Shown: in pieces, positions 2,254 through 24,386 of the stretch | How the letters are laid out: each line of letters begins with the position of its first letter | How positions within the stretch are numbered: position 1 is the first letter of the stretch | Origin: a virus | Direction: 5' to 3' (one strand) | IMG/VR virus record: IMGVR_UViG_3300029582_000347 | Span: 1 to 26,455 of that record | DNA length: 26,455 nucleotides | Position numbers and translations under genes: made by a program | Notes under the pieces: generated by a model | Seen by the model: only the letters and a program-made list of their open reading frames with translations | Databases searched by the model: none | What the model was told of the DNA's origin: nothing

Positions 2254-2345
2254 GGGAGAAAATGGGACTGGGAGGATGAAGGATAAGCGACTGTATCCAC
2301 CTTGAATCTTGATTCCGTTTCCTTGAACCAGTAAACTTCAACCGC

Positions 2346-2861
2346 AGGAAAAAGAAAGCATCACCTACAACCAAAAGAAAACCGGGGAGGCCGAGCCTCT
2401 ACACCGAGGATTTAGCCCAGGAAATAGCCGTCCGGCTAGCCAATGGCGAAACCATGAAAGCCATCTGCGCCGACGCTCACATGCCGGACGTCTGGACCGT
2501 CTGGCACTGGCGGGAAACCAGGCCGGAGTTTTCCCAACTTATTCAATGCGCGCGGGAAGCGCAGTCGGAAGCCATGCTTGACGCCTGTCAGGAGCTGGCC
2601 GACGAGGCCGCGAAAGTCGCCCTCGACCCGGAATGCGGCTCCGCCGCCGTCGCCGCAAAAAAGCTGGCCATTGAAACGCGGCTGAAAGTCGCCGCCCGAT
2701 TCGCGCCGGAAAAATTCGGCGACCGGGTCCGTCAGGATGTCGCCGGCGTTCCCGGAGCGCCGCTGGAACGGAAAATCACCCTGGACCCCGATCAGCTGGC
2801 CCAGCTGCAGGAAGACGAGAAAACCGCGCTGGAAACCATCGCCGGCAAACTCCAAGCTTAA
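2346..2861 (+). CDS. terS: Terminase small subunit (N-terminal HTH type)
   Basis: KRKPGRPSLYTEDLAQEIAVRLANGETMKAICADAHMPDVWTVWHW...FAPEKFGDRV matches the common GRPSKYTPE...IC...MP...W...KYGD small-terminase pattern. The first canonical start (ATG 2454) falls inside the HTH. There is no ATG/GTG/TTG in frame between the stop at 2310 and 2454. The start given here is the in-frame AGG at 2346 and is a hypothesis. Confidence 0.8.
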   Translation, partial: RKKKASPTTKRKPGRPSLYTEDLAQEIAVRLANGETMKAICADAHMPDVWTVWHWRETRPEFSQLIQCAREAQSEAMLDACQELADEAAKVALDPECGSAAVAAKKLAIETRLKVAARFAPEKFGDRVRQDVAGVPGAPLERKITLDPDQLAQLQEDEKTALETIAGKLQA

Positions 2862-2867
2862 CAGACC

Positions 2868-4241
2868 AGGACACGCCTCCCCGTCAGCTTCTTCCTCCGC
2901 CATGTCCTCCGCCTGGATCCCTATCCCTGGCAGGTGGAGGCCATCAAGGCGTTGTCCCTCGGAAAGCTGACCCTGGGAGGGAAAAGCGTGGCTCTGGTCG
3001 CCCCCAACGGATCCGGCAAGACGAGCAACTGCATCGCTCCGGCCATCCTGTACTTCCTCACCTGCTTCCCGAAGGGCCAGGTGCCAGTCACGTCGTCGTC
3101 GTGGATGCAGGTGGAAAAGCAGCTCTTTCCCGCGCTCCGCCGCTACATGGACAATCCCTTCTTTGACGGCTGGACCTTCAACAAAACCGAAATCCGCACG
3201 CCGGAGGGAGGCTTTGCCGTGGGCTTCTCGACCGACAACGCCGGCCGCGCGGAAGGATGGCACCCGAAAATCTCGCCCGACGTGGACCCCGTCTTTTATG
3301 TTCTTGACGAGGCCAAAACCATCCCGGACTCCATCTTCACCGCCGTTTCCCGCTGCACGCTCTTCCACGCGTTCATCACCTCGTCGCCGGGGGCCGATTC
3401 CGGCACCTTCTACGACTGCTTCCACAAAAATTCATCTCTCTACTACAAAATCCGCGTCAAATACGAGGATTGTCCCCACATTGAGATCAACGACCCGGGC
3501 AAGGCCGAACGCCTGAAAAAAGAATACGGCGAACAGTCCTCCTTCTACCGCTCCGCCATCCTCGGCGAATTCACCGACCTCGACGGTCAGTCCGTCATTC
3601 CCCGGCGCGCCCTCATGGAGCTGGTCAACAACCCGCCTCCCTTTCTGGACACCGGGGAGACCTGCGGCGGCTTCGACTTCGCGGCCGGAGGCGACGAAAA
3701 CGTCTTCGCGGCCGGGCAGGGCAACCGATTCTTTATAGCCGACCACTGGTCGGACCCGGACACCGTAGGAGCGCGCGGACGGTTCCGCCGCCGGGCGTCC
3801 GAACTCGGCATCCCCGCCGACCGCATTTACGCGGACGGAGACGGCCTTGGACTACCCATCATTGACGACTTCCGCGCCGAGGGCTTCCCGGTGCACTCCT
3901 ACCGGGGCGGCTTCCCGGCTGACGACACTCAAGCCTTTGTCAACCTCCGCGCCCAGGCGTGGCGGGCCCTGGCACGCGCCATCGAAGAAAAGGAACTCAT
4001 CCTCGACATTGACGAGGACACGATTGAACAGCTGGTAGCGCCCCGGCTTCAAACCGACGCGATCGGCCGCGTCAAAATCGAAAGCAAGGAAGACATGGCG
4101 AAACGGGGCGTCCGTTCTCCCGACCGCGCCGACGCCCTCGTCATGGCCTGGCACGCGCGCCGGCACAGCGGACTGGCCCGGACGCTGGGAGCTTGGTACT
4201 CGCGTCCCGTGTCATCCAAACGCGCCATCGGGAGATATTAG
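2868..4241 (+). CDS. terL: Terminase large subunit
   Basis: Walker A VAPNGSGKT and Walker B FYVLDEA. Nuclease-domain acidic motifs ADGDGLG and SPDRADAL. The track start is GTG 2934, but the conserved LDPYPWQ lies upstream of it. The start given here is the in-frame AGG at 2868, which is the only shared candidate start. Confidence 0.9.
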   Translation, partial: RTRLPVSFFLRHVLRLDPYPWQVEAIKALSLGKLTLGGKSVALVAPNGSGKTSNCIAPAILYFLTCFPKGQVPVTSSSWMQVEKQLFPALRRYMDNPFFDGWTFNKTEIRTPEGGFAVGFSTDNAGRAEGWHPKISPDVDPVFYVLDEAKTIPDSIFTAVSRCTLFHAFITSSPGADSGTFYDCFHKNSSLYYKIRVKYEDCPHIEINDPGKAERLKKEYGEQSSFYRSAILGEFTDLDGQSVIPRRALMELVNNPPPFLDTGETCGGFDFAAGGDENVFAAGQGNRFFIADHWSDPDTVGARGRFRRRASELGIPADRIYADGDGLGLPIIDDFRAEGFPVHSYRGGFPADDTQAFVNLRAQAWRALARAIEEKELILDIDEDTIEQLVAPRLQTDAIGRVKIESKEDMAKRGVRSPDRADALVMAWHARRHSGLARTLGAWYSRPVSSKRAIGRY

Positions 4242-4243
4242 GG

Positions 4244-4272
4244 TTGACAATATATCAATATATCCGTATATG
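4244..4272 (+). promoter_or_regulatory. Sigma70-like promoter for the phage tRNA
   Basis: TTGACA (4244-4249), a 17-nt AT-rich spacer, then TATATG (4267-4272). The -10 ends 17 nt before the tRNA 5' end. The candidate host tRNA-Cys promoter has the same geometry. Confidence 0.4.
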
Positions 4273-4288
4273 AAGATATGTAATCAAT

Positions 4289-4362
4289 CGCAGGGTGGTG
4301 AAACGGTATCACGCGGGGTTCCTGTCCCCGAGTAGGAGGTCCAATTCCTCCCCCTGTAACCA
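4289..4362 (+). tRNA. Phage-encoded tRNA, anticodon CCU (formally Arg/AGG) with initiator-tRNA-like features
   Basis: Hand-folded 74-nt cloverleaf: CGCAGGG TG GTGA AACGGTA TCAC G CGGGG TTCCTGT CCCCG AGTA GGAGG TCCAATT CCTCC CCCTGTA A CCA. All stems pair fully except C1xA72 and G2-U71. The CCA is encoded. Confidence 0.85.
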
Positions 4363-4385
4363 CCATTTTCTTTCGCTTCCGGCTC

Positions 4386-5750
4386 AGGTTCAACGCATTA
4401 AAAAATATCCTCAACGCCCCGAAGCTAGTCGCCCAACAGGAGACCAGAATCAAGGAGCTGGAGACGGATCTCGCCCGGCGAGCCCTGACGGAACAAAGCC
4501 GGCAGCCCAACCGTCCCCAATGGTACGAATACTGGGACCCGTTACAGGGAGCCGACTTGAGCACTCTTGTGGAGGCCCGGAATGAAGCCCGGCGGGGAGC
4601 CTTTGCCCGGCAAATGCTGATCTGGGATGAAATCATTTATTCGGACGGGCTGCTGGGCATGCTCTACTCCCGCTTGATCGAAAGCGTCGCCATGCAGGGC
4701 TGGAAGATTGACGCCGCGGACGAAAGTCCGGAGGCCCAGCGCCAGAAAACCGCCCTGGAAGAATTCTACCACTCCGTCAACGGGCTGCAGCAGTCTTTTG
4801 GACAGCTGGCTTCCGCCATGTTCTACGGTTACGCCCATCTCCAATACATCGAGGATTCCTGGGGCCGCCGATTTGAATTCATCCCGCAGCGTTATTGGGT
4901 GCGGCCGGGAGAGTTGAATCAATGGCAGTTCAACCCCCAGTGCTATATCGGGGTCGATACTGGCGAAAGCGTGGAAGAAGAAACGCTCGTCGTGATGGAG
5001 CACCGGTATCCCATCCTGTTCCCCGCCGCCCGCGCCTCCTTTGAGCGCAACCACGCAAAGATAACGTGGGACAACCACATGGACCGCTACGGGAGCGCCC
5101 CGGTCATCATCACCGCCCCCAAGGACGCGAGCGCCGCCGTCATGGACGCGCTGGAACGGGCCTGCGAACAGCTTAAATCAGGCGCCTCCATCGTGCTGCC
5201 TCCTGACTGTAAGGCGGAACCGCTCAAGGCGTCCAACATCAACGAAAACTATTTTCTCTCGCGCATCAACATGGCCGACAAGGACCAGGTGCGTTTTGTG
5301 ATGGCCGGAACCCTGACCGTCCTAAACGAATCAGGATCCGGCACGCTAGCCGGGTCCGCCCATACGGACAGCTGGAACGCGGTGGTGTCCGCCGTCTGCT
5401 CCAAAGTGGCGGAAGCGTTCAACACCGCCATCAGCCCGCTTATATTGGAAGACGGCGAACCGCTGGCCCGCCTCCACATCACCTTTGACACTGTCCAGAC
5501 GCCATTGCAGAAGGCCGAGGAAATCGCCGCCCTTGCGGACGGAGGCGTCCGTCCGGAGAAAACGGAAATCGAAGAAAAGATCGGCATGTCGATCGAGGAT
5601 TCGAGGGAGCCCGTGCCGACGGCGGCGGCAGCCAACAGGGAGTCGGGAGACTCCCTCATTCCGCCCGACGCCTACGAACAGCTGCAGCAGATGATTTACG
5701 CCGGCCTCATGAAAGGATTTAACGATGATCAGTACCAGACAAATCAATGA
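4386..5750 (+). CDS. Portal protein (Mu gp29 / DUF935-like)
   Basis: Lies downstream of terL with appropriate size. It carries the DUF935-like core LLGMLYSRLIESVAMQGWKI...AMFYGYAHLQYIE. The track start is TTG 4557, but the frame stays open and protein-like back to the tRNA. The start given here is the in-frame AGG at 4386. Confidence 0.7.
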   Translation, partial: RFNALKNILNAPKLVAQQETRIKELETDLARRALTEQSRQPNRPQWYEYWDPLQGADLSTLVEARNEARRGAFARQMLIWDEIIYSDGLLGMLYSRLIESVAMQGWKIDAADESPEAQRQKTALEEFYHSVNGLQQSFGQLASAMFYGYAHLQYIEDSWGRRFEFIPQRYWVRPGELNQWQFNPQCYIGVDTGESVEEETLVVMEHRYPILFPAARASFERNHAKITWDNHMDRYGSAPVIITAPKDASAAVMDALERACEQLKSGASIVLPPDCKAEPLKASNINENYFLSRINMADKDQVRFVMAGTLTVLNESGSGTLAGSAHTDSWNAVVSAVCSKVAEAFNTAISPLILEDGEPLARLHITFDTVQTPLQKAEEIAALADGGVRPEKTEIEEKIGMSIEDSREPVPTAAAANRESGDSLIPPDAYEQLQQMIYAGLMKGFNDDQYQTNQ

Positions 5751-7324: not shown

Positions 7325-8248
7325 AGGGCTAATCTATTTTATTCAGCTGTTCAGTTTACCGATGTCCTGACCGCCTTTTCCGTGGGAGCGGGGAATACGG
7401 AACGGGACTCCATGATCAACCGCATCGCTCCGCTCGTCCCGGTATACGATATTTCCTTCCAATATATGGTATTGGACACGCCGGCCGCGTTTACGGTGGA
7501 ACCCATCCAGGTGGCGCCCGGTGAACCTCCCCGCCAGACTTCCATGCTCGGACGGACCGAAACCGATACCCTGCAGGCGTACGCGCTTACGGATCCGATT
7601 CCCGATATTATGCTGGGGGTCAACAGGGAAAAGGCGCAGGCGATTCTGCTCGCCCATGCCCGCTTCCTGGAATCGAAATTCGTCACATCTTACGAATACC
7701 AGCGCGCCAAGCTCATCGAGAGCCAGGTTCCGGCAGCGTCCGGTTATGGAGATTGGGACAATGCGCAGAAAAACCCGCTGACGGATTTGGACAACGCGAT
7801 CCGCACCATCAATGCCACTGCCGGGAAAATGCCGAATACGATTGTTTTCGGCGCCAATGCCTGGGCCCGGCTTCGGTCGAACCCGCTGGCAAGGCAGGTA
7901 GTGTCGCACAACAGCGTCGGCCTGTTCGACGAAGATCTGCTGAACAGATCGCTGTATACGCGGATGAAGGAAGTCTACGTCAACAACATGCCTTTCTACG
8001 ACCCCTCCGGTCAAGGGAAGACAATGATGGAAGACGACGTCTACATCCTCTACAAAGAAGATTCTCCGACGCAGTTTGACGCCTCGGCTATCAAGACCTT
8101 CGGGCTGAACGGACAGTTCCGCCGGGAAGTAACGACGGAATACTTCCCGACCAACAAGGAAACAAAGGTGACCAACCGGGTTTACTCGTTGACCAAGCTG
8201 ACCAACCCCGGCGCGATTATCCGCATCAACACGGCGTCCGCCGATTAA
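7325..8248 (+). CDS. Major capsid protein (protein E-like)
   Basis: E-family-like pattern: DWDNAQKNPLTDLDNAIRTINATAGKMPNTIVFGANAWARLRSNPL. Size and position fit. Canonical candidate starts are GTG 7382 and ATG 7412. The start given here is the in-frame AGG at 7325, the weakest of the AGG cases. Confidence 0.7.
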   Translation, partial: RANLFYSAVQFTDVLTAFSVGAGNTERDSMINRIAPLVPVYDISFQYMVLDTPAAFTVEPIQVAPGEPPRQTSMLGRTETDTLQAYALTDPIPDIMLGVNREKAQAILLAHARFLESKFVTSYEYQRAKLIESQVPAASGYGDWDNAQKNPLTDLDNAIRTINATAGKMPNTIVFGANAWARLRSNPLARQVVSHNSVGLFDEDLLNRSLYTRMKEVYVNNMPFYDPSGQGKTMMEDDVYILYKEDSPTQFDASAIKTFGLNGQFRREVTTEYFPTNKETKVTNRVYSLTKLTNPGAIIRINTASAD

Positions 8249-11556: not shown

Positions 11557-12207
11557 AGGGCTACTACATACGACCCCACTTTTAGCAACCGCAACGTGAC
11601 GCCGCAGATTACCGGCGTTCTGGCTATTTTCCTTCCCGACGGGATCAAGGTGACCGAGGACGAGGGAGCTTCTTACGTCACCGGGCCGGACCAGTTTCCG
11701 ACGCCTCCGACATCTCCGCCGACGGATCCGACCGCCGGGCCCGAAGCGCCCTGGGTGAGCTTCGGGCTGCTGGGCGCGTTCCAGTCCGTCGCCACGCAAG
11801 TCGAAGGAGAAGTGACGCGCTTTTACGGCGGCGCGCTGGGCTACCGCCAGCAGCGCAAGAACACGACGACCGGCAAGCGCCTGACCTTTACCACGCCGGA
11901 CATGTCCCCCGAATGGTTCCAGCTGTCTTTCGCTCTGGGAGCGCCTCCCGCCAATGGAGAGGAATCGACCACCGTCGGACATGGCGGCGACAACAAGATT
12001 GAGGGGTATCTTCACTTCTGGTACCAGAACGACGTCGGCACGATCTATCTGGTCGGAACGGCGCATGGCGCGTTGCGCCTCCTTCAGGATCCGGAACATA
12101 CCACGGCGATCGCTTCGCCCCAGTTCGAGTTCGAGATGGATTACCGCGGCAAGTACCAGTTCACGCCTTCCAATGTGCAGGACGTGACGCCGACGCCGGG
12201 TTCCTGA
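11557..12207 (+). CDS. Putative major tail protein
   Basis: About 216-aa ORF after the head-tail joining genes, followed by a hairpin terminator, which is typical for a highly expressed major structural gene. The track start is GTG 11596. The start given here is the in-frame AGG at 11557, giving MATTYDPTFSN. Confidence 0.45.
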   Translation, partial: RATTYDPTFSNRNVTPQITGVLAIFLPDGIKVTEDEGASYVTGPDQFPTPPTSPPTDPTAGPEAPWVSFGLLGAFQSVATQVEGEVTRFYGGALGYRQQRKNTTTGKRLTFTTPDMSPEWFQLSFALGAPPANGEESTTVGHGGDNKIEGYLHFWYQNDVGTIYLVGTAHGALRLLQDPEHTTAIASPQFEFEMDYRGKYQFTPSNVQDVTPTPGS

Positions 12208-12255: not shown

Positions 12256-14259
12256 AGGCAGCAGGCAGGCAAATATGATATCAGGACCGTCACGGGGCTG
12301 AACCAGTCCCTGGTCGTCCGCGTCGTGGATTTCCAGGGTGACCCCGTCGATATGAGCGGCGTCACCCTGCGCGGAGCCGTCCGCCTCAAGACGGGCGTGA
12401 CGGAGTTCGGCTTTTCTCGAGACGACGAGGGCAACGGCGTGATTTCCTGGGAGTCGGTGCCTGCGGGCATGTGGTCCTATGACGTCTTCATGGACGACGG
12501 CAGCGAAGAAAGCCCCCTTCTCTACGGTTGCTTTGTTTCTTCGGGCCGGGTAACGCCGGACTTGCCCGGCGAGCAGCAGGCCGTGGCGGGCGCGGTCGTC
12601 GTGCAGCTGCCGGAAGGAAGCGGCTGCGTGCAGGTAGTGCTTGATAATGCGTCCAGCGCCGCCTGGTACGCGGAACAGGCCAAGAAGTACGCGGAGAATT
12701 TTAGCCTGTCCGTTGACGAAGTCACCACCGGGGAACCGGGGACGGCCGCCGCTGCGGAAGCCGTCAAAGGGGAGGCTGCAGGCTCCTATAAGCTCTCCTT
12801 CACCATTCCCCGGGGGGATGTCGGTCCCGAAGGGCCGGCAGGCCCGCAGGGAGAACGGGGCGAAACCGGACCCGAAGGGCCTCAGGGCCCCCGCGGCGAA
12901 ACCGGGGAACGGGGGCCGCAGGGCGAAACGGGAGAGCAGGGCCCGAAGGGAGATCCGGGCCCGGCCGGACCGCAAGGTCCCGAAGGCCCGCAGGGGCCGG
13001 AAGGTCCGGTGGGGCCCCAGGGCCCTCAAGGGGAAAAGGGAGATCCTGGTACTCTGACATCCAACGTTGGCGATGTGAATATCGGGGGAGCCCTGACCGC
13101 GGAGTCAGCTACCGTGAACGGGCCTCTGGTGGTCAACAACCCGGACGGCAGCGGAAGCGTCGGCACGCTGAATCAGATTTACGGGATCACCCGGTTTTAC
13201 CAGTCGGTCGATCTTCGGTCGGGCGGATGGCTGAGAGGGACATTCATGGTAGAGACTGGAATCCTGAATATCAGCCAGGGCGCCAGCTTCAACTGCGCGG
13301 GGACATCCACGTTTTCAAGCGCCCTCAACGCCAATGGAGGCGTCAACATCCCGTTGGCCGTGGGTGCGCCGACCGATACGTCAGCGGTCAATCGCCTGTA
13401 TGCCTCGGGCATGGGAGGCGCAGCCAATGCTTATACGGCGGCGGCTTTCCTGAATACGGACACGCTGACAACTACCGGCACGGCAACGGTGACTAAAACG
13501 GTTCCCTACCAGATGGCCCGCATAGGCATTCCCGCGGGCGCTCACACGACTATTCAGGCCCCCTTTGAAGGCCCCAGTTCCCAATGGAATTATTCTTCCT
13601 GGGCCGGCTTTTCGTTTGTCTGGCGGGCCACGGCCGCAGCGAAGATAACGATGGGCATCGGACGGGGAGCGAAAACAATCAGGGCGGACCTTACCACCGA
13701 CTCCTACACGATTATTCCTGGCAATGACCTGGCATTTAATTCCGGGGAGATTCTGGACATCACCTTTGACAACGTGCGCGATACAACGCGCAACGGATAT
13801 ACGGTGCGGGTGCGGGAAATTTATGCGCTGACGTCCGCCGATGGATGGCAGGTCAAGACGACGACCAGCTTTATCCCGGCGACGCAGAACGAGCCCGTCC
13901 CGTGGACGGTGTGCAAGATTATTTACCAGCAGCAGACGGTTGCCAACAGCAGCGTTTATGAAAACCTGGGAGGCCTCTGGCTGCTGGTCACGGGGGCACA
14001 GACCAACAACCTGTTCAAGATCGCCACCTGCCGGGGCGTCTCCAATTTTGAGACCGGCGTCGGCATTTCCAGATGGGTGACGGATGTGATCAACACCACC
14101 AGCGGCACGGCTTCCGTTTATGCAGGGCCCGGGGAATATGCCTATTACCAGCCGGGCAATGTGAACCCCCTCTTTTACGGGTTGGACGCGATAGGAACGA
14201 ATGCCATTGAATCCGAGGCAACCGCCGCTTTTGAAGATATTAACGTACCAATAGAATGA
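12256..14259 (+). CDS. Tail fibre protein with collagen-like triple-helix repeat
   Basis: 26 uninterrupted G-X-Y triplets, an N-terminal Ig/BppU_N-like segment ([30 protein letters not shown]) and a long C-terminal beta-rich region. The track start is GTG 12325. In-frame AGGs occur at 12256 (used here) and 12283. Confidence 0.8.
12814..13050 (+). repeat. Collagen-like (G-X-Y)26 coding repeat
   Basis: [18 protein letters not shown] ... GEK GDP G, read directly from frame 1. Confidence 0.95.
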
Positions 14260-17375: not shown

Positions 17376-19262
17376 ATGGCCACCAAGAAAGAAATTGAAA
17401 TCAAACTCAAGTCCACGCTGGACGGAAAAGGCGTGGAAGAAGCCAAACAGCAGATCGACGCGCTGAACAAGTCTACGGAGCAGTTGGATAAAGACAGCAA
17501 GCAGGCAACCAGGAGCGTGAAGAACATGGGTCAGGGGGCCTTGCAGGCTGCCTACTTCTTCGATGACTTGCAGTACGGCATCCGGGGCATCATGAACAAT
17601 ATTCCGGGGCTGGTGATGGGCTTCGGAGGCGGCGCAGGTCTGGCCGGCGCGATGTCGCTTGCCGTTCTGGCCGGGGCGAAGCTTTACGATTGGATGAGAA
17701 AAACGGAAGACAAGTCGGCGGATCTCGCCAAAAAAATGAAGGAGCATAGCAAAGAGATTGCCGAAGCTTCTCGTCAGGCTATCCGGGCAAGTTATCAGGC
17801 TTTGCAGGAATTCAACCAGCAAGAACGCACCAAGACCGTTAATGAAGAGTATCAAAACTATGTAAAGGGAATTACCCGGGAATTTGAATATCAGACGGAA
17901 GAGCTTGAAAAACAAATTCGCTTGAGACGGGAGGAAGCGGCTCGCCAGAAAGGCATTGATACACGCCAGGCGGAGCTTGACCGCGTCAACTTGGAAGTGG
18001 GCTACCAGGAAGGAAGAATCACTAAGAGGCAGCGAGATTACGGCTTGATGATGGTTGATCAGAATCTGGACCAGAAAATCAGACAGCGTGATTTAGGCGT
18101 GGAGCAGGCTAATTATATGGATATTGGCAAACAGCTTGCGGAGGCAGTCAAGGCCCGAGATGCTGCGGAAGCTCATGCTTTTGATATGCAATTCAAGCAA
18201 GGGAACCTTCCTTCTCTTCAAAATGTTCTTGGCCTTTTACAGCAGCAAGAACGATCTCAACGGAGTATTGATAGCTTAGAAAGTCAACTTCCTGATTTAC
18301 GCGGGGAAATATGGGAGAAAAATAAAGAGTATAATAAAGTTTTGAAGAGAAATGGTGGTTATGAAACTACATATTCCAGTCTAGTAAAAAAAGAAATTGA
18401 TGATTTAGTTGCGAAGCAGGATCGGCTTGTTGAATTAATCAAAACGGCGAGGGAAGAGGCTAATCAGGCAAATGATCAGTTGAAATCTTTTCAAGATGTG
18501 CTTGGAGAAGGAGGCGTAAATCTTGAATTAGACTATAGCCAAGGAACAGATGTCAATAGTCGCTTCAAACAAGTATCAGATGCAGTAGAAGAGTTTAAGA
18601 AGAATACGGATGCCGCGAAAAAACAGTTTGATAAATTAACGGAGAAAGCCGGTTCTTTGGGGGATGCAATGGCTTCGACCGAAGCATCTATCAAAAACAT
18701 GGAACAAATTGATGCTATTCAAAATCAAATAGACGCCGGCAAGGTTAAATCATTTAACATGCAAAGAGACAGGGAAGAAGCAGAGGAAGCCCGAAGAAAT
18801 GAAGAAAAAATAAAGAAGGCTCGTGAACGGGCCGAAAGGGAGGCTCAAAAGCAGACTGCCGAGAGGCAGCAGGCGATGATCCGCGGCATTACTCTTGAAG
18901 GCGTTCCCGAGCATCCTACAGCCCAGCAACGCGCCCGGATTGCGGCTGCCCGCGAAGCTTTGAATGCAGGGAAGAAACGCCTTGCGGAAAGCATTTCTGA
19001 CAAAGATACGGAAATCGACCCCAGCGAGATTCAAGGGGCGTTTGACGTGATGGAAAACGTATTGAGAGAAAGCGGACAATACACTAAAAAATTGATGGAT
19101 TATTTGAAAATCATAGCAATAGCACAGGCTAGTAAGGTAAATGCCGTGCAAGCAGATACAAAAAAATATGTAGATGCTAAATTCGAGGAAATCTTGAAAA
19201 TAGTACAGAAGGGCAACGGAAGATTGCAAACAGGGATAAACCGGCTTGCCGGAGGCTTTTAA
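17376..19262 (+). CDS. Tail tape measure protein
   Basis: 628 aa. Has a Gly-rich hydrophobic segment (NNIPGLVMGFGGGAGLAGAMSLAVLAGA) and long coiled-coil Lys/Glu/Gln-rich stretches. Position is upstream of the tail-tip gene. Confidence 0.8.
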   Translation: MATKKEIEIKLKSTLDGKGVEEAKQQIDALNKSTEQLDKDSKQATRSVKNMGQGALQAAYFFDDLQYGIRGIMNNIPGLVMGFGGGAGLAGAMSLAVLAGAKLYDWMRKTEDKSADLAKKMKEHSKEIAEASRQAIRASYQALQEFNQQERTKTVNEEYQNYVKGITREFEYQTEELEKQIRLRREEAARQKGIDTRQAELDRVNLEVGYQEGRITKRQRDYGLMMVDQNLDQKIRQRDLGVEQANYMDIGKQLAEAVKARDAAEAHAFDMQFKQGNLPSLQNVLGLLQQQERSQRSIDSLESQLPDLRGEIWEKNKEYNKVLKRNGGYETTYSSLVKKEIDDLVAKQDRLVELIKTAREEANQANDQLKSFQDVLGEGGVNLELDYSQGTDVNSRFKQVSDAVEEFKKNTDAAKKQFDKLTEKAGSLGDAMASTEASIKNMEQIDAIQNQIDAGKVKSFNMQRDREEAEEARRNEEKIKKARERAEREAQKQTAERQQAMIRGITLEGVPEHPTAQQRARIAAAREALNAGKKRLAESISDKDTEIDPSEIQGAFDVMENVLRESGQYTKKLMDYLKIIAIAQASKVNAVQADTKKYVDAKFEEILKIVQKGNGRLQTGINRLAGGF

Positions 19263-19309
19263 CCAGCTTTTAGGCTTGCACTAACGCCGATTTATAGCAC
19301 CATACCACT

Positions 19310-19894
19310 ATGGCTAATTATTACGTTGCTTTTGACTCAAACCATGTTGATGGGCCTTACTCATTTGAAGAACTTGAAGCCTTGTACAAGGAAGGGAAAA
19401 TCTTGTCAGAAACTCTTGTTTGCCCTGAAGGAGGTCAGGAGTGGCTATCCTTTGGAAGGATTTATCATCTGACCAAAAACACCAACAGAAAATCAGAAGA
19501 AAAAGAAACGGAGTGGCAACCAAAGAAGAGATTTGTTGACATTCTTTTAGATAAGTCAGAAAAAAGAAGAGAAGAAAGACTATTAAAGGAAAAAGTTCCT
19601 AAAGGGAATCTTATTGAGTCAAAAAAAGAATCTATTTTAGAAAAAGATCCTTCTTGGAAAGAAAGTCAAGAATGGGATGAACAAGAACCTCTAAAAATTA
19701 CAGTTGAAGGTATATTTCGTTTTGTAGGCATAATTGCCCTCATTGCTGGATTTATATTGTTTTGTAACAATGTAGAAGAAAAGCAAACCGAAATAGGCTT
19801 TATTTACTTGGTTTCCGGGGCCTTCTCCTGCCTTGGCTGTTTCTGGTGTGCAAAGGTTCTGACGTTGCTCCAAAAGATCGCCGATAAGAAATAA
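19310..19894 (+). CDS. GYF_2 (DUF4339-like) domain membrane protein, probable moron
   Basis: N-terminus YYVAFDSNHVDGPYSFEELEALYKEGKILSETLVCPEGGQEWLSF. Lys/Glu-rich linker. Two C-terminal hydrophobic helices (FRFVGIIALIAGFILFC and IGFIYLVSGAFSCLGCFWCAKVLTLL). Very low local G+C. Confidence 0.65.
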   Translation: MANYYVAFDSNHVDGPYSFEELEALYKEGKILSETLVCPEGGQEWLSFGRIYHLTKNTNRKSEEKETEWQPKKRFVDILLDKSEKRREERLLKEKVPKGNLIESKKESILEKDPSWKESQEWDEQEPLKITVEGIFRFVGIIALIAGFILFCNNVEEKQTEIGFIYLVSGAFSCLGCFWCAKVLTLLQKIADKK

Positions 19895-19918: not shown

Positions 19919-22090
19919 AGGAACCACGACATCACCATCAATGACTTGCTGGCCCTCAAGCCGTCGAGCCTGACCCACGACCAGCAAAGCTTTTCCGTCT
20001 CCACCATCACCGCGGTTTATCCCGTGCGAACGCTGGGGGAGGTCTTGCCCTTCCAACAGTTCGATACTGTCGCCATCTCCCAAAACGGGAACACCATTCT
20101 TTCCGGCCTCGTTTCCAGCATCGAAAAGGCCTACAGCGGCTCATCCCGTGCGTGGAAAATCGTCTTTTCCGATCCCTGGTATTGGCTGGACAACTGCTTT
20201 GCGCTGGATTCCGAATGGAAGCCGGTCTTCTCCATGTGGAATAAAGTCAGCGGAGGGGGCGGCATCATTCCGAAGATAAGCATTTCCTCCGCGCTCTCCC
20301 GGGTGCTGAACCTCGCCAAACACCACCCGGCGGACTACGAGCTGCGTATCAGCGACGACAAGATGCTGATTCCGTGGAACGCCTCCTGCGATACGCTGGG
20401 CAGCCTCCTTCAATCCATCCGCCGCTGGTCGCCCCGGATGGTCTCGTACTACGACTACAGCGGAGCGCGCCCCAAGCTCATCATCACGGACTATGACGCC
20501 CTGACGCCCATTGCGCTTCCCTTGCAGCCGACGGAAACGGTCAAGTCCATGGACGTCTCCCTGATCCCCCGGGGCGACCTCGTTCCGCCCTGCGTGGCTA
20601 TCGTCGCGGAAACGACCGGCAGCAACGGCTACCGCGTCTCCTACCTGTCCAAATACCCGGAAGACGGGGACCCGACCTTGCCGCACTCCATTGTTTACCG
20701 AACGTCAGTAGACTTCTACTACTCCAAATACAGTTCTACGGGGGAGCCGGTAGAAGATCCGCAGCCGGTGCAGGGCACCAGGGCCGGCAGCCTGTCTTAC
20801 CAGCGCATGAAAGTGACGGGGACCAGGATTGACCAGAACGACATGATCAACAGTTTCTGGAAAAATCATTTCCCGTGGATGAAAGATGTAGGAGCAATCG
20901 CCGTCTATGACCAGGATCCGACCATCACCGGGAAGCCCTGGGACGGAACGGAGGAAGACAAGCCGCGAGGCTACAACACCGCCGCCACAGGCTATGAACT
21001 GACGGACGGGCAAATTCATACCAAATCCATCCGCCCGCAATGGTGCAATGCCACTATCAAGCAGCGTCTCGCCATCCCGGAAAGCGCCCCTGCCAAGTGG
21101 CGGGAGAAATTCAAGAATGTGGGGACCTTGCAGGGTGTGCCCTGCTTTTGGGAAGAATTCTCGGTAGATCTGGTCACCATGGACCGCCCCTTTGCGAGCT
21201 ACCCCATCGACGGCATCTACAACGGGGAGCAGCCCTCCAACGGGCCGGAAGAAGGGGAATCGCCGGAACCGTCGGAAGGTGTGCCCTATGGGGACATTGC
21301 AAAAACGGTGTGGGAATCCATGCAGGAATTGCCCTGGGACGGCTCTATTTCCTTTGTCGCGCTGGGGGATGCTCAAACGCGGCAATACATGGGCCGCCGC
21401 GTCTCGCTGCTGGGAGGGAACCCCGCATGGCAGAATATCAACACCATGATCCAGACGGTGAACCGCGACCTGCAGACCAACGTCATTACGTTATCCTACG
21501 GCGCGCCGGAACAACTGGGAATTGAAGAATGGGTAGAATTGAAGCGCGTGAATGCCACATCACGCAGATCCTCCACGCTGGAAAACATGCAGGGCGCGCC
21601 GGAATCGACGGAATACGCCTTTGACCCCAAGCCGGAATCCCCCACCATCAGCCAGCATATTACCAAGTCCACCGGGGAAGCCACGCCCGCGCCGGAATAC
21701 GGCTTCCAGGTGCGGGTACAGAAAGATACGGAGGGAGCCGTCACCGGGGCGCAAATCAAGCCCGGCGCGCTCTACCTGAACGGGAATCTGCTCGGCAAAT
21801 ACCCGCAGGGGGGCAGTTCCGGTTCCTCGTGGGTGCAGCTCACCCAAACCAGCGGGGAAGTATGGCTCAACGTCCACTTTGACCAGGACGCCAAATTGAC
21901 GGGCGTTGACGTCTCCGGCATTCCGGGGACGGTGTACCCAATCAGGCTTGCCGGAGAAAAACCGGGCGTCAACTTCGACTATTCCTTCCTGATTGCCGAC
22001 ATCGAAGATGACCAGGTGACGCAATACGCCCTGGGCATGATTCAGATTCCGGTCTTCGGAGGAACCTTCTACCCCTACGGACCAGCATAA
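19919..22090 (+). CDS. Tail tip / distal tail (host-specificity) protein
   Basis: About 723-aa ORF after the tape measure. The track start is TTG 19946. The start given here is the in-frame AGG at 19919, giving MNHDITINDLLALKPSSL. The family is not recognised; the call is by size and position. Confidence 0.5.
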   Translation, partial: RNHDITINDLLALKPSSLTHDQQSFSVSTITAVYPVRTLGEVLPFQQFDTVAISQNGNTILSGLVSSIEKAYSGSSRAWKIVFSDPWYWLDNCFALDSEWKPVFSMWNKVSGGGGIIPKISISSALSRVLNLAKHHPADYELRISDDKMLIPWNASCDTLGSLLQSIRRWSPRMVSYYDYSGARPKLIITDYDALTPIALPLQPTETVKSMDVSLIPRGDLVPPCVAIVAETTGSNGYRVSYLSKYPEDGDPTLPHSIVYRTSVDFYYSKYSSTGEPVEDPQPVQGTRAGSLSYQRMKVTGTRIDQNDMINSFWKNHFPWMKDVGAIAVYDQDPTITGKPWDGTEEDKPRGYNTAATGYELTDGQIHTKSIRPQWCNATIKQRLAIPESAPAKWREKFKNVGTLQGVPCFWEEFSVDLVTMDRPFASYPIDGIYNGEQPSNGPEEGESPEPSEGVPYGDIAKTVWESMQELPWDGSISFVALGDAQTRQYMGRRVSLLGGNPAWQNINTMIQTVNRDLQTNVITLSYGAPEQLGIEEWVELKRVNATSRRSSTLENMQGAPESTEYAFDPKPESPTISQHITKSTGEATPAPEYGFQVRVQKDTEGAVTGAQIKPGALYLNGNLLGKYPQGGSSGSSWVQLTQTSGEVWLNVHFDQDAKLTGVDVSGIPGTVYPIRLAGEKPGVNFDYSFLIADIEDDQVTQYALGMIQIPVFGGTFYPYGPA

Positions 22091-22889: not shown

Positions 22890-24077
22890 CTAACGGGCCA
22901 CGCCGACTGCGATCTTGCTCATGGCCGCCTGGACGTCCGCAGAATCCGGACGGAAATAGACCCGTTCAATTTCTTCGGAATCGTGTCCGACGATGAAGCG
23001 GCATAAATCCGGGGACACCCCGGCCAGGCGCAGGACGGTCACGGCGGTCGCCCGGAGGCTGTGGAAGCTCTTTTCCGAAAGCCGGTGACGGTCGCCTCTT
23101 ACTTCCCCGGGCATTTCGCGGATGATTCCGTACGTTTTCAAGAGTGTGGTGAACTCCGTGGAAAGCTTATCGGAACGCCCGCCCGCATGGGCATGGCGAA
23201 GTGCCGCCAAAGGGAACACGTAATCGTTCACCCGGTTGAGCAGACGCCTTTCCAACACCTCTTTCAAGGGCTGGATGATCGGCTTGTTCATGCGGCGCCG
23301 GCTCTTCTGCGTGGTCATGAACAGGAAGGAGTTCTTCAAGTCAATCTGCTCCCATTTCAGCGTCGCCAGGTCTCCGAGGCGCTGGCCTCCGGTGTAGAGG
23401 CACACCCGCACCAGATCCGGCCATTCGTCCGGGAAGCATTCAATGATGGTATTTACTTCCTCCATCGTGAACGCGCCGCGCAGCTGCTTTTCCGCCTGGT
23501 GGTCCGACCGGGAAGGCATGACGCCCCGGAACGGATTCCGGGAAAGGATCTCCCGGTCTACAGCGACATTGAACGCCGTGGAAAGCGTGGACACGTAGCG
23601 GATGACGGTACCTGCGGAAACGCGCTCTAATTCAGTTTCTACAAAATCTTTAGCCATGCCTTTATTCAAGGCGGCCAGGGGCATATTCCGTCGGTCTCCG
23701 AGGTACGCCAGCAGCCGGCGGACGGCCATGCCGTCCCGCTCATAGGCCCGCTTCTTGTTTTTCCGTCCGTCCAGCCAGTCAAACAGGAACCGGCTCACCG
23801 TCATGCCGTTCATGGTGGCTTTCAGCACGCCCGCTTGATCTCCGGCAATGGCCTTCACCTTGTCCAGGTCAAAAACCCCATAGCGGGCTTCCTTCTCCAT
23901 CTCCTGGGCGACGAGACGCGCCCGCGCTTCATTCTGGGACATGACCGATTTTTTATTCGCTCCCGGGAGAAGCGCCCTGGGAACCACGTCGATTCCGGTG
24001 GTTTTCCGCAGCTCTTTTCCGTCCAGAGACCGGAAGACGGCCACCCATTTATTGTTGCGTTTGATGATGCCTGCCAT
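22890..24077 (-). CDS. int: Tyrosine recombinase / phage integrase
   Basis: N-terminal arm-binding-type domain (MAGIIKRNNKWVAVFRS). Catalytic region includes GGQRLGDL, HSLRATAVT, VGHDSEEIERVYFRP (R..HxxR..H..Y). Adjacent to a tRNA gene. Confidence 0.95.
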   Translation of the reverse strand: MAGIIKRNNKWVAVFRSLDGKELRKTTGIDVVPRALLPGANKKSVMSQNEARARLVAQEMEKEARYGVFDLDKVKAIAGDQAGVLKATMNGMTVSRFLFDWLDGRKNKKRAYERDGMAVRRLLAYLGDRRNMPLAALNKGMAKDFVETELERVSAGTVIRYVSTLSTAFNVAVDREILSRNPFRGVMPSRSDHQAEKQLRGAFTMEEVNTIIECFPDEWPDLVRVCLYTGGQRLGDLATLKWEQIDLKNSFLFMTTQKSRRRMNKPIIQPLKEVLERRLLNRVNDYVFPLAALRHAHAGGRSDKLSTEFTTLLKTYGIIREMPGEVRGDRHRLSEKSFHSLRATAVTVLRLAGVSPDLCRFIVGHDSEEIERVYFRPDSADVQAAMSKIAVGVAR

Positions 24078-24212: not shown

Positions 24213-24288
24213 TGGCATCGCGTACGGGACTCGAACCCGTGTTGCCCGCGTGAAAGGCGGGAGTCCTGGACCGCTAGACGAACGCGAC
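24213..24288 (-). tRNA. tRNA-Glu (anticodon UUC)
   Basis: Reverse complement is GTCGCGTTCGTCTAGCGGTCCAGGACTCCCGCCTTTCACGCGGGCAACACGGGTTCGAGTCCCGTACGCGATGCCA. Canonical cloverleaf, anticodon loop CTTTCAC, close to E. coli tRNA-Glu. Confidence 0.95.
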
Positions 24289-24311
24289 TTGAACCGGCTT
24301 TGACAACATCT

Positions 24312-24386
24312 TGGAGGCGGGAGCGGGAATCGAACCCGCGAATAACGATTTTGCAGACCGTCGCCTTACCACTTGGCTACCCCGCC
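24312..24386 (-). tRNA. tRNA-Cys (anticodon GCA)
   Basis: Reverse complement is GGCGGGGTAGCCAAGTGGTAAGGCGACGGTCTGCAAAATCGTTATTCGCGGGTTCGATTCCCGCTCCCGCCTCCA. Anticodon loop CTGCAAA. U73 discriminator is typical of tRNA-Cys. Confidence 0.95.

Follow-up and report, generated by a model that had tools for sequence, protein, structure and literature searches.

A phage-encoded, initiator-like tRNA with anticodon CCU and proposed AGG start codons in the virion genes of an Akkermansia prophage and of unrelated gut phages

The stretch of viral DNA analysed here, IMG/VR record IMGVR_UViG_3300029582_000347 (26,455 nucleotides (nt), hereafter the window), carries between its large terminase gene (terL) and its portal gene a 74-nt tRNA that combines the anticodon CCU with features of bacterial initiator tRNAs. 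Comparison with more than 110 loci of the same family, collected by portal-based searches of IMG/VR, metagenomes, one Akkermansia metagenome-assembled genome and other assemblies, and with similar tRNAs found in unrelated gut phages, indicated that this phage-encoded tRNA very probably starts translation of packaging and virion genes at AGG codons. We also consider it probable, if somewhat less so, that a class of gut phages has reassigned the start codon of virion genes by means of its own non-CAU initiator tRNA, with anticodon CCU matched to AGG and anticodon GCU matched to AGC or AGU. The features at the tRNA locus are as follows.

4289-4362, + strand: tRNA with anticodon CCU, C1xA72 and encoded CCA, the proposed phage AGG initiator (ARAGORN, Rfam, covariation)
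4244-4272, + strand: promoter-like TTGACA-N17-TATATG, 16 nt 5' of the tRNA (read from the sequence, kept in relatives)
4363-4385, + strand: U-rich 23-nt spacer from the tRNA 3' end to the portal AGG (alignment of relatives)
4386-5750, + strand: portal gene (Mu-like, PF06074) with a putative AGG start at 4386-4388 (homology, substitution pattern, PHROG profile)

The sequence-only reading from which this analysis started had described a clean 74-nt cloverleaf between terL and the portal gene, and three approaches agreed on it: ARAGORN called a tRNA-Arg(cct) of 74 nt at 4289-4362(+), the Rfam tRNA model scored 48.7 bits (E 9e-8) while marking 1:72 as non-standard, and the arms covaried among 22 distinct homologues. 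The minimum-free-energy fold was also a cloverleaf with nucleotide 1 unpaired, its energy z-score of -1.56 not being decisive by itself. Every individual element listed in that reading was recovered when the sequence was read and parsed by script. The acceptor stem consists of C1xA72, G2.U71, C3:G70, A4:U69, G5:C68, G6:C67 and G7:C66, followed by A73 and CCA; the D-arm GUGA/UCAC gives U11:A24 and the D-loop AACGGUA gives U20; the anticodon stem CGGGG/CCCCG places three consecutive G:C pairs at 29-31:39-41 and closes the loop UUCCUGU; and the T-loop UCCAAUU puts C at position 55.

Set beside bacterial tRNAfMet of the E. coli metZWV/metY type, the phage tRNAs share the unpaired 1:72, G2:C71, C3:G70, A73, U20 and the G:C pairs at 29-31:39-41, of which G30:C40 is invariant; direct entry into the P site is presumed for them as well. 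The formyltransferase determinants G2:C71, C3:G70 and A73 are thus present across the family, the window copy itself having G2.U71. They differ from tRNAfMet in being phage-encoded, in having U11:A24 rather than A11:U24 and mostly C55, and in carrying CCU rather than CAU, so that charging by methionyl-tRNA synthetase is not expected and the codon read is the arginine codon AGG; because CCU was found in all family members, these are not tRNAfMet in the strict sense. With the elongator tRNA-Arg(CCU) of the E. coli argW type they share CCU and A73, and the C35 plus U36 (or G36) expected of an arginine anticodon is present, GCU relatives likewise keeping C35 and U36. In contrast to that elongator, they lack A20, the main determinant of arginyl-tRNA synthetase (ArgRS) recognition in E. 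coli, and have U20 instead; position 1:72 is an invariant C x A rather than a pair; the T-loop is unusual; and there is no excess of AGG codons for the tRNA to serve.

The 74-nt tRNA(CCU) occupied the same position in 113 of the 116 loci examined, in 22 distinct sequences; the three remaining loci had either no tRNA (L063) or truncated copies (L072 and L104). C1xA72, C3:G70, A73, CCA, the anticodon CCU, U11:A24 and G30:C40 were invariant in all 113, and G2:C71 was present in 110, making the G.U of the window a rare state. Restoration of a Watson-Crick 1:72 pair in relatives had been named beforehand as an outcome that would speak against an initiator, and no relative restored it (C x A in 113/113). 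Among the 22 distinct homologues, 95% of cells paired and nine of the 21 pairs changed on both sides, including 4:69, 6:67, 7:66, 27:43, 29:41 and three T-stem pairs, a level of covariation reached by none of 500 shuffles, and 1:72 was unpaired in all 22. Judged by this pattern of substitution, the tRNA exists and is under selection, and its initiator-like end is its most constrained part.

The promoter ascribed to the tRNA is present, but whether it is the tRNA's "own", as had been claimed, is doubtful. TTGACA (4244-4249) is separated by a 17-nt spacer from TATATG (4267-4272), a site that a consensus promoter scanner does not call because it requires T at the end of the second hexamer, which here is G. 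The TTGACA hexamer was retained in 19 of 20 distinct relatives aligned. Since TTGACA-N17-TATGTT occurs at this junction of terL and portal in L063, a relative that lacks the tRNA, the site is probably the promoter of the portal operon rather than of the tRNA alone; a scan found no terminator-like site between tRNA and portal, and a single transcript of tRNA plus portal is likely.

Evidence for initiation at AGG came first from the portal gene itself. Its frame is open from 4302, and the first ATG, GTG or TTG is TTG 4557, where most relatives have CTG. Ahead of ATG 4614, the earliest ATG to be conserved, no canonical start is shared by the family, and one relative (L004) lacks any. Conservation of the portal protein begins exactly at the invariant AGG 4386, 23 nt 3' of the tRNA, and the spacer 5' of that AGG is variable, with indels, measures 15-26 nt in relatives, and contains neither a Shine-Dalgarno (SD) sequence nor significant structure. 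Over the 76 codons from AGG 4386 to ATG 4614, variable columns at codon positions 1, 2 and 3 numbered 27, 15 and 66, a signature suggesting that this stretch is coding sequence. In the tRNA-less relative L063/L124, whose portal is 61% identical, the aligned codon is TTG (MIKTLKNLF versus [AGG]FNALKNIL), and in the variant L062 it is ATG. Another relative, L064 (portal 63% identical), has a tRNA(CCU) with C1xA72, G2:C71 and C3:G70 located 26 nt 5' of its AGG start. The PHROG portal profile is colinear with the AGG-start protein (27 to 27).

Two other accounts of the portal start were discarded. A start at the conserved AUC 4407 was ruled out in that the six codons from AGG to AUC evolve as coding sequence and the AUC codon is missing in L064; the AGG as a remnant of an SD sequence was ruled out in that no start codon lies at a suitable distance and the phage genes generally lack SD sequences. 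In public gene calls, the length of this one portal varies between 378 and 493 amino acids, the long ones being translated through the tRNA and the short ones starting from internal codons (P0001, P0003, P0006, P0014, P0015, P0016 and P0020-P0031). This disagreement would follow from a true start at AGG, a codon invisible to gene callers. In a second portal family (P0066, P0097, P0098 and P0122), many public calls begin at an internal SGMDD methionine.

Comparison with the 17 called genes of the tRNA-less relative L124, all of which have canonical starts, extended the pattern to further genes of the window, listed here with the evidence for each.

2346-2861, + strand: small terminase gene (terS), putative AGG start 2346-2348 (conserved N-terminus, PHROG terS profile)
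2868-4241, + strand: terL, putative AGG start 2868-2870 (homology, substitution pattern)
7325-8248, + strand: major capsid gene, putative AGG start 7325-7327 (homology, PHROG profile, substitution pattern)
11557-12207, + strand: virion (tail) protein gene, putative AGG start 11557-11559 (L124 homologue, substitution pattern)
12256-14259, + strand: tail-fibre gene (collagen-like repeats), probable AGG start 12256-12258 (L124 homologue by 6-residue extrapolation)
19919-22090, + strand: possible seventh AGG start at 19919-19921, TTG 19946 being conserved equally well (alignment)

In the 16 alignable gene pairs, the window codon corresponding to the initiator methionine (M1) of L124 was AGG for the portal (4386), the major capsid (7325), the tail protein (11557, 79% identical to its L124 homologue) and the tail fibre (12256). 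By our arithmetic, with AGG at about 0.5% of codons, four exact hits among 16 pairs have a chance probability of about 1e-6. Apart from terL, the remaining counterparts had ATG at the M1 position or a few codons off. The AGG of terL (2868) lies two codons past the terS stop and two codons inward of the M1-aligned position, and the first canonical codon, GTG 2934, falls inside the conserved PYPWQ[VM]EA motif. Similarly, the AGG of terS (2346) heads a conserved N-terminus, and its first canonical start, ATG 2454, falls inside the conserved domain. PHROG profiles were colinear with the proposed proteins (capsid residue 13 to position 14; terS residue 7 to position 3). For all six AGG genes, the first ATG, GTG or TTG occurs 13-76 codons downstream, within conserved protein sequence, and variation in the intervening stretch is mostly at third codon positions. 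Thus, the idea that an initiator-type tRNA with anticodon CCU would point to AGG starts gained support, AGG appearing by homology to head at least six virion genes.

The AGG starts were also stable within the family, being retained in the members that cover them at 99 (terL), 114 (portal), 101 (capsid), 11 (tail protein) and 8 (fibre) loci and in every terS variant examined. The exceptions were ATG at or right beside the codon, in L022 (capsid and terL) and L064 (terL), and the capsid codon was ATG in the tRNA-less L063; such toggling between arginine and methionine codons is expected at a start codon and odd elsewhere. No tRNA was found within the 13 kb examined of L124, and none of its genes had an AGG start.

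Upstream of terS, unrelated promoter-like sequences were seen in L037 (TTGAAT-N18-TATAAT), L043, L070 and L123, corresponding to window positions 2296-2348, and in each member compared 6-8 nt separate the end of the second hexamer from the AGG. The terS transcript may thus start at the AGG itself, with little or no leader.

Independent evidence came from a looser pattern scan, which identified similar tRNAs in unrelated gut phages whose genes carry SD sequences. L141 (IMGVR 3300045988_164163; 46% GC) has a T4-type terminase, a DUF4055 portal and a P22-type coat, and encodes 3' of its tail-tube gene a tRNA(CCU) with A1xA72, G2:C71, C3:G70 and A73. Its portal gene begins AAGGAGG-ctgcca-AGG-TCT-GTT-TTT-GAT, where homologues begin M-S-V-F-D, and the 92%-identical relative L144 has the same SD sequence and spacer followed by ATG. 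Anticodons and start codons in six genomes of this group were as follows.

L141: tRNA CCU; portal AGG; capsid ATG; tail tube AGG; terL not compared
L148: tRNA CCU; portal ATG; capsid AGG; tail tube ATG; terL AGG
L149: tRNA CCU; portal AGG; capsid AGG; tail tube AGG; terL AGG
L150: tRNA CCU; portal AGG; capsid AGG; tail tube AGG; terL not resolved
L146: tRNA GCU; portal AGC; capsid AGC; tail tube AGC; terL not compared
L143: tRNA GCU; portal AGU; capsid ATG; tail tube ATG; terL ATG

The AGG, AGC and AGU codons lie 6-7 nt past GGAGG or AGGAG, at the M1-aligned codon of the portal, capsid, tail-tube and terL genes. Non-canonical starts were exclusively AGG in the CCU genomes (L141, L148, L149 and L150) and exclusively AGC or AGU in the GCU genomes (L143 and L146), and no crossed combination of anticodon and start codon occurred among the genomes compared. 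An unbiased scan for an SD sequence, 4-10 nt, a codon and a long open reading frame (ORF) near the start of its open frame returned AGG about as often as ATG in L149 (7 versus 6) and L150 (8 versus 9), and no AGG in the GCU genomes. The gene caller's choice in L143, a TTG, adjoins the SD sequence with zero spacing. A tail-tube start at ATG 10001 of L141 was rejected, since the SD scan and homologues favoured AGG 9959.

The tRNAs of this second group reproduce the initiator-like end with other bases. Their 1:72 mismatches vary (AxA, CxA, CxU and UxU), with G2:C71, C3:G70, A73, G30:C40 and G31:C39 constant; of the pairs 29-31:39-41, only 30:40 and 31:39 are G:C. At 71 nt and with no long variable arm, the two GCU tRNAs are not ordinary tRNA-Ser. 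The tRNA gene lies directly 3' of the tail-tube gene wherever the contig extends there, about 8.5 kb downstream of the portal. Counting L131, whose tRNA(CCU) at 4055-4126(-) has U1xC72, G2:C71, C3:G70 and A73, 1:72 was mismatched in all seven tRNAs from other lineages; because the bases at 1:72 differ yet never pair, selection appears to act on non-pairing rather than on particular bases. The L131 tRNA belongs to the structural module of its contig, which is 4.7 kb long and comes from another metagenome, and no AGG start was evident within that contig. A further lineage, L182, in which a tRNA(CCU) with G1xA72 was read by eye together with four SD-AGG starts, came from an anticodon-arm scan with CGTGGCTNNNTTCCACG, in which the matches listed were mostly not anticodon arms.

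Several other observations were made in this group. The tRNA(GCU) of L146 (20398-20468) has C33 in place of the near-universal U (loop GCGCUUG). L149 and L150 each have three paralogous small genes with SD-AGG starts and Gly/Ser-rich N-termini (GGRGSS...; L149 3394, 3951 and 5311; L150 3539, 4317 and 5670), so recoding in these genomes would not be confined to virion genes. The head-morphogenesis gene contains an intein (PF14890; L141 3121-5589, L143 11315-14014).

We propose that the promoter at the terL/portal junction would transcribe tRNA and portal together and that the tRNA would be excised from the 5' leader, of which a short part lacking an SD sequence would remain. The tRNA would then be aminoacylated, most likely by ArgRS, which in E. 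coli reads C35 and U36; this charging is suggested by the two anticodon versions, CCU and GCU, which share both of those bases and diverge at position 34 alone. The unpaired 1:72 with G2:C71, C3:G70 and A73 would allow acceptance by the host formyltransferase and IF2 and keep the tRNA from EF-Tu, G30:C40 and the neighbouring pairs would license the tRNA to bind in the ribosome's P site, and CCU would pair with AGG, a codon presumably read poorly by the host tRNAfMet. Recoding affects genes for packaging and for the virion, the portal being the most consistently recoded across lineages, which suggests that synthesis of assembly proteins is tied to the phage tRNA; our guess is that this serves timing or safeguards lysogeny. 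An E. coli initiator tRNA engineered to carry CCU is reported to initiate well at AGG; the authors describe this as the most robust of 12 pairs tested, and of five strains quoted, four showed their largest fold-change with it (bioRxiv 10.64898/2026.04.16.719103).

A number of observations weigh against initiation by this tRNA at AGG. The evidence for such initiation is comparative throughout, and because the genes of the Akkermansia family mostly lack SD sequences, the assignment of starts there relies on homology and substitution pattern. Within the tRNA, A20 is absent, the G2.U71 of the window is a weaker fit to the formyltransferase determinants, and C55 (18 of the 22 distinct sequences), together with replacement of G19 in three variants, would be unusual for any tRNA, as tRNAs almost always have U at 55; with C56 also replaced in one variant, contact between D-loop and T-loop seems to be under relaxed constraint. 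A Lys-charged initiator tRNA is a poor substrate for formyltransferase, and by analogy an Arg-charged one may be so too. All family tRNAs have U11:A24 in place of the A11:U24 of bacterial initiators, which the sequence-only reading had taken to argue against an initiator. This objection did not hold for phage tRNAs, because the tRNA-Met(CAU) of Stenotrophomonas phage RAS14, which has C1xA72, shares U11:A24. Variation at 29-31:39-41, also raised beforehand as unfavourable, was found in part: G30:C40 never changed, but in a minority of the 113 loci 29:41 became A:U (19 loci) or 31:39 became U.G (8 loci). Of these pairs, G30:C40 is reported to be both essential and sufficient, and initiators of the au/GC/GC and GC/GC/gu types to occur in nature (PMC5389676).

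The remaining difficulties concern the co-occurrence of tRNA and AGG starts. L062 and L148 have the tRNA and an ATG portal start, which is compatible with the model, as AGG starts need the tRNA and not the reverse. The prophage portal of L147 (large bacterial contig ERZ12289767 NODE_1, 568 kb) begins AGGAG-7 nt-AGG, with no tRNA(CCU) within 10 kb, the sole tRNA in that interval being an ordinary-looking tRNA-Gly(UCC). In L072 (about 2985-3000), L104 (about 2975-2990) and L127 (564-577), what is left of the tRNA next to the AGG-start portal is its final 14 nt (TTCCCCTGYAACCA), preceded by an AT-rich element that is related to the low-GC module of the window (18.1-19.9 kb). Integration of this element into the phage tRNA gene would fit these remnants, and the element's other end may hold an intact tRNA.

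Of the alternatives to a dedicated initiator, a tRNA that both initiates at AGG and decodes internal AGG codons fares best, and we regard it as unlikely. In E. coli, a 1:72 mismatch weakens EF-Tu binding and does not abolish it, the T-stems of the phage tRNAs are G:C rich, and internal AGG codons occur within the same genes. However, the strict absence of a 1:72 pair, irrespective of which bases are present, suggests selection that keeps the tRNA out of elongation, favours its formylation, or does both.

It is improbable that the AGG starts are real but are read weakly by host tRNAfMet so as to keep expression low, the tRNA having an unrelated role such as making up for a host tRNA that a defence nuclease cleaves or serving as an integration target. 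Low expression might suit the portal, which is required in few copies, but the major capsid protein, the most abundant protein of the virion, is also AGG-started. Near-cognate initiation in E. coli at many codons, including AGG, is reported in earlier work cited by the preprint on engineered initiators (bioRxiv 10.64898/2026.04.16.719103), and both the L147 portal and the insertions that L072, L104 and L127 carry at the 3' end of the tRNA would be in keeping with this account. In contrast, the tRNA-less relative has no AGG starts, and weak reading by tRNAfMet cannot account for AGC and AGU starts exactly where the anticodon is GCU.

Slightly more improbable still is an ordinary elongator tRNA-Arg(CCU) serving a rare codon, with the 1:72 mismatch as noise and the AGGs at starts as coincidence. 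ARAGORN labels the tRNA Arg, C35, U36 and A73 fit arginine identity, phages often carry tRNAs for rare codons, and internal AGG codons do occur (37 in about 7250 phage codons). AGG nevertheless makes up merely 8.3% of the phage's arginine codons (5.1 per 1000 codons, versus 12.8 per 1000 in the one host gene of the window), which gives a supplementary elongator tRNA a weak motive. Moreover, A20 is absent, the mismatch is invariant while neighbouring pairs covary and recurs with other bases in other lineages, five or six AGGs at M1-aligned codons are far above expectation for a codon of 0.5% frequency, and the GCU versions, which lack the long variable arm of tRNA-Ser, co-occur with AGC and AGU starts. 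Finally, a tRNA acting mainly as a signal for RNase P and 3' processing to form the portal mRNA 5' end, charging being unneeded, is hardly credible: its position between promoter and portal start with no terminator-like site, and the same promoter in the tRNA-less relative, would suit it, but it needs neither the invariant CCU, A73 and CCA nor a match to start codons kilobases away, and the tRNA of the second group lies far downstream of the portal.

When the phage collection was searched, the tRNAs outside the family that best matched the window tRNA over its full length were tRNA-Met(CAU), including that of RAS14; such tRNAs in RAS14 and in Streptomyces phages (e.g. CeilingFan) share the compact body, the D-arm GUGA-AAYGGYA-UCAC, U11:A24 and CGGGG. 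The RAS14 tRNA has C1xA72 and GGG:CCC when parsed, and the Streptomyces phage copies have a 1:72 mismatch by eye. Unlike the tRNA of the window, these keep CAU and read AUG, and recoding of start codons is not implied. tRNA-Met also ranked first in a comparison with 47 tRNAs of the fetched loci, a result to which we give no weight because the loci had been picked by a pattern taken from the window tRNA; the search of the phage collection is free of this bias. L061 has a tRNA-Met(CAU) with the same D-arm adjoining an integrase-sized ORF, which is uninformative on ancestry. The window tRNA had no BLAST match in E. coli genomes, an IMG/VR scan for initiator bodies of the E. coli type that carry anticodon C[C/G/T]T returned none, and a tblastn search of the phage collection with the extended portal matched Akkermansia phage DTMo-2021a alone.

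The closest known precedents include stop-codon recoding in phages and engineered initiator tRNAs. In crAss-like and Lak phages, stop codons are reported to be recoded by phage suppressor tRNAs, and the recoded codons are concentrated in late or structural genes. As in the system proposed here, a phage tRNA alters the meaning of a codon, suggesting translational control of lytic genes, but stop-codon recoding acts at termination, with TAG or TGA read as sense, whereas the AGG system would act at initiation, with a sense codon read as a start. Engineered i-tRNA(CUA), i-tRNA(AAC) and i-tRNA(CCU) follow the same logic as the phage tRNA, keeping the initiator body while changing anticodon and start codon together. 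Such orthogonal initiator tRNAs with matching non-AUG starts (PMC11744186; bioRxiv 10.64898/2026.04.16.719103) and the containment of an engineered phage by an amber initiator tRNA (bioRxiv 10.1101/2024.07.29.605542) are laboratory work based on the metY scaffold of E. coli, whereas the phage tRNA is natural and conserved in more than 100 metagenomic contigs, alongside several virion genes that appear to be recoded. In open-access papers and bioRxiv we found no report of a natural non-CAU initiator tRNA, phage or cellular, with recoded starts.

The window itself is an Akkermansia muciniphila prophage, matching Akkermansia phage DTMo-2021a (CP084202) at 96% identity across 3.1 kb. A tyrosine integrase gene (22890-24077, - strand) adjoins host tRNA-Glu(UUC) and tRNA-Cys(GCA) genes (24213-24386, - strand), a junction that probably marks where the prophage ends, with its attachment site in a host tRNA cluster, and host DNA, including a PA14-domain protein, extends from 24812 on. 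The low-GC module (17376-19894; 39-47% GC versus about 58% elsewhere) contains two genes without a family match and looks like a mobile cassette; related sequence lies directly 5' of the truncated tRNA in L072 (1-1466) and, as short stretches, in L104 (2406-2454).

To our knowledge, bacterial and viral start codons are AUG or its near relatives, read by a single tRNAfMet. If the reading proposed here is true, these phages would represent a new kind of departure from the code, at initiation, and a natural orthogonal system of translation initiation. Gene callers would misplace the starts of the main structural genes, and annotation pipelines would need to allow AGG, AGC and AGU starts wherever such a tRNA occurs. 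For synthetic biology, the phages would offer evolved natural parts for orthogonal initiation, CCU/AGG being the pair that engineers report as most robust. The host, A. muciniphila, is medically relevant, and an inducible phage of the same family has been sequenced (CP084202). For such a temperate phage, the arrangement would mean that terminase, portal and capsid are kept untranslated unless the phage makes its own tRNA.

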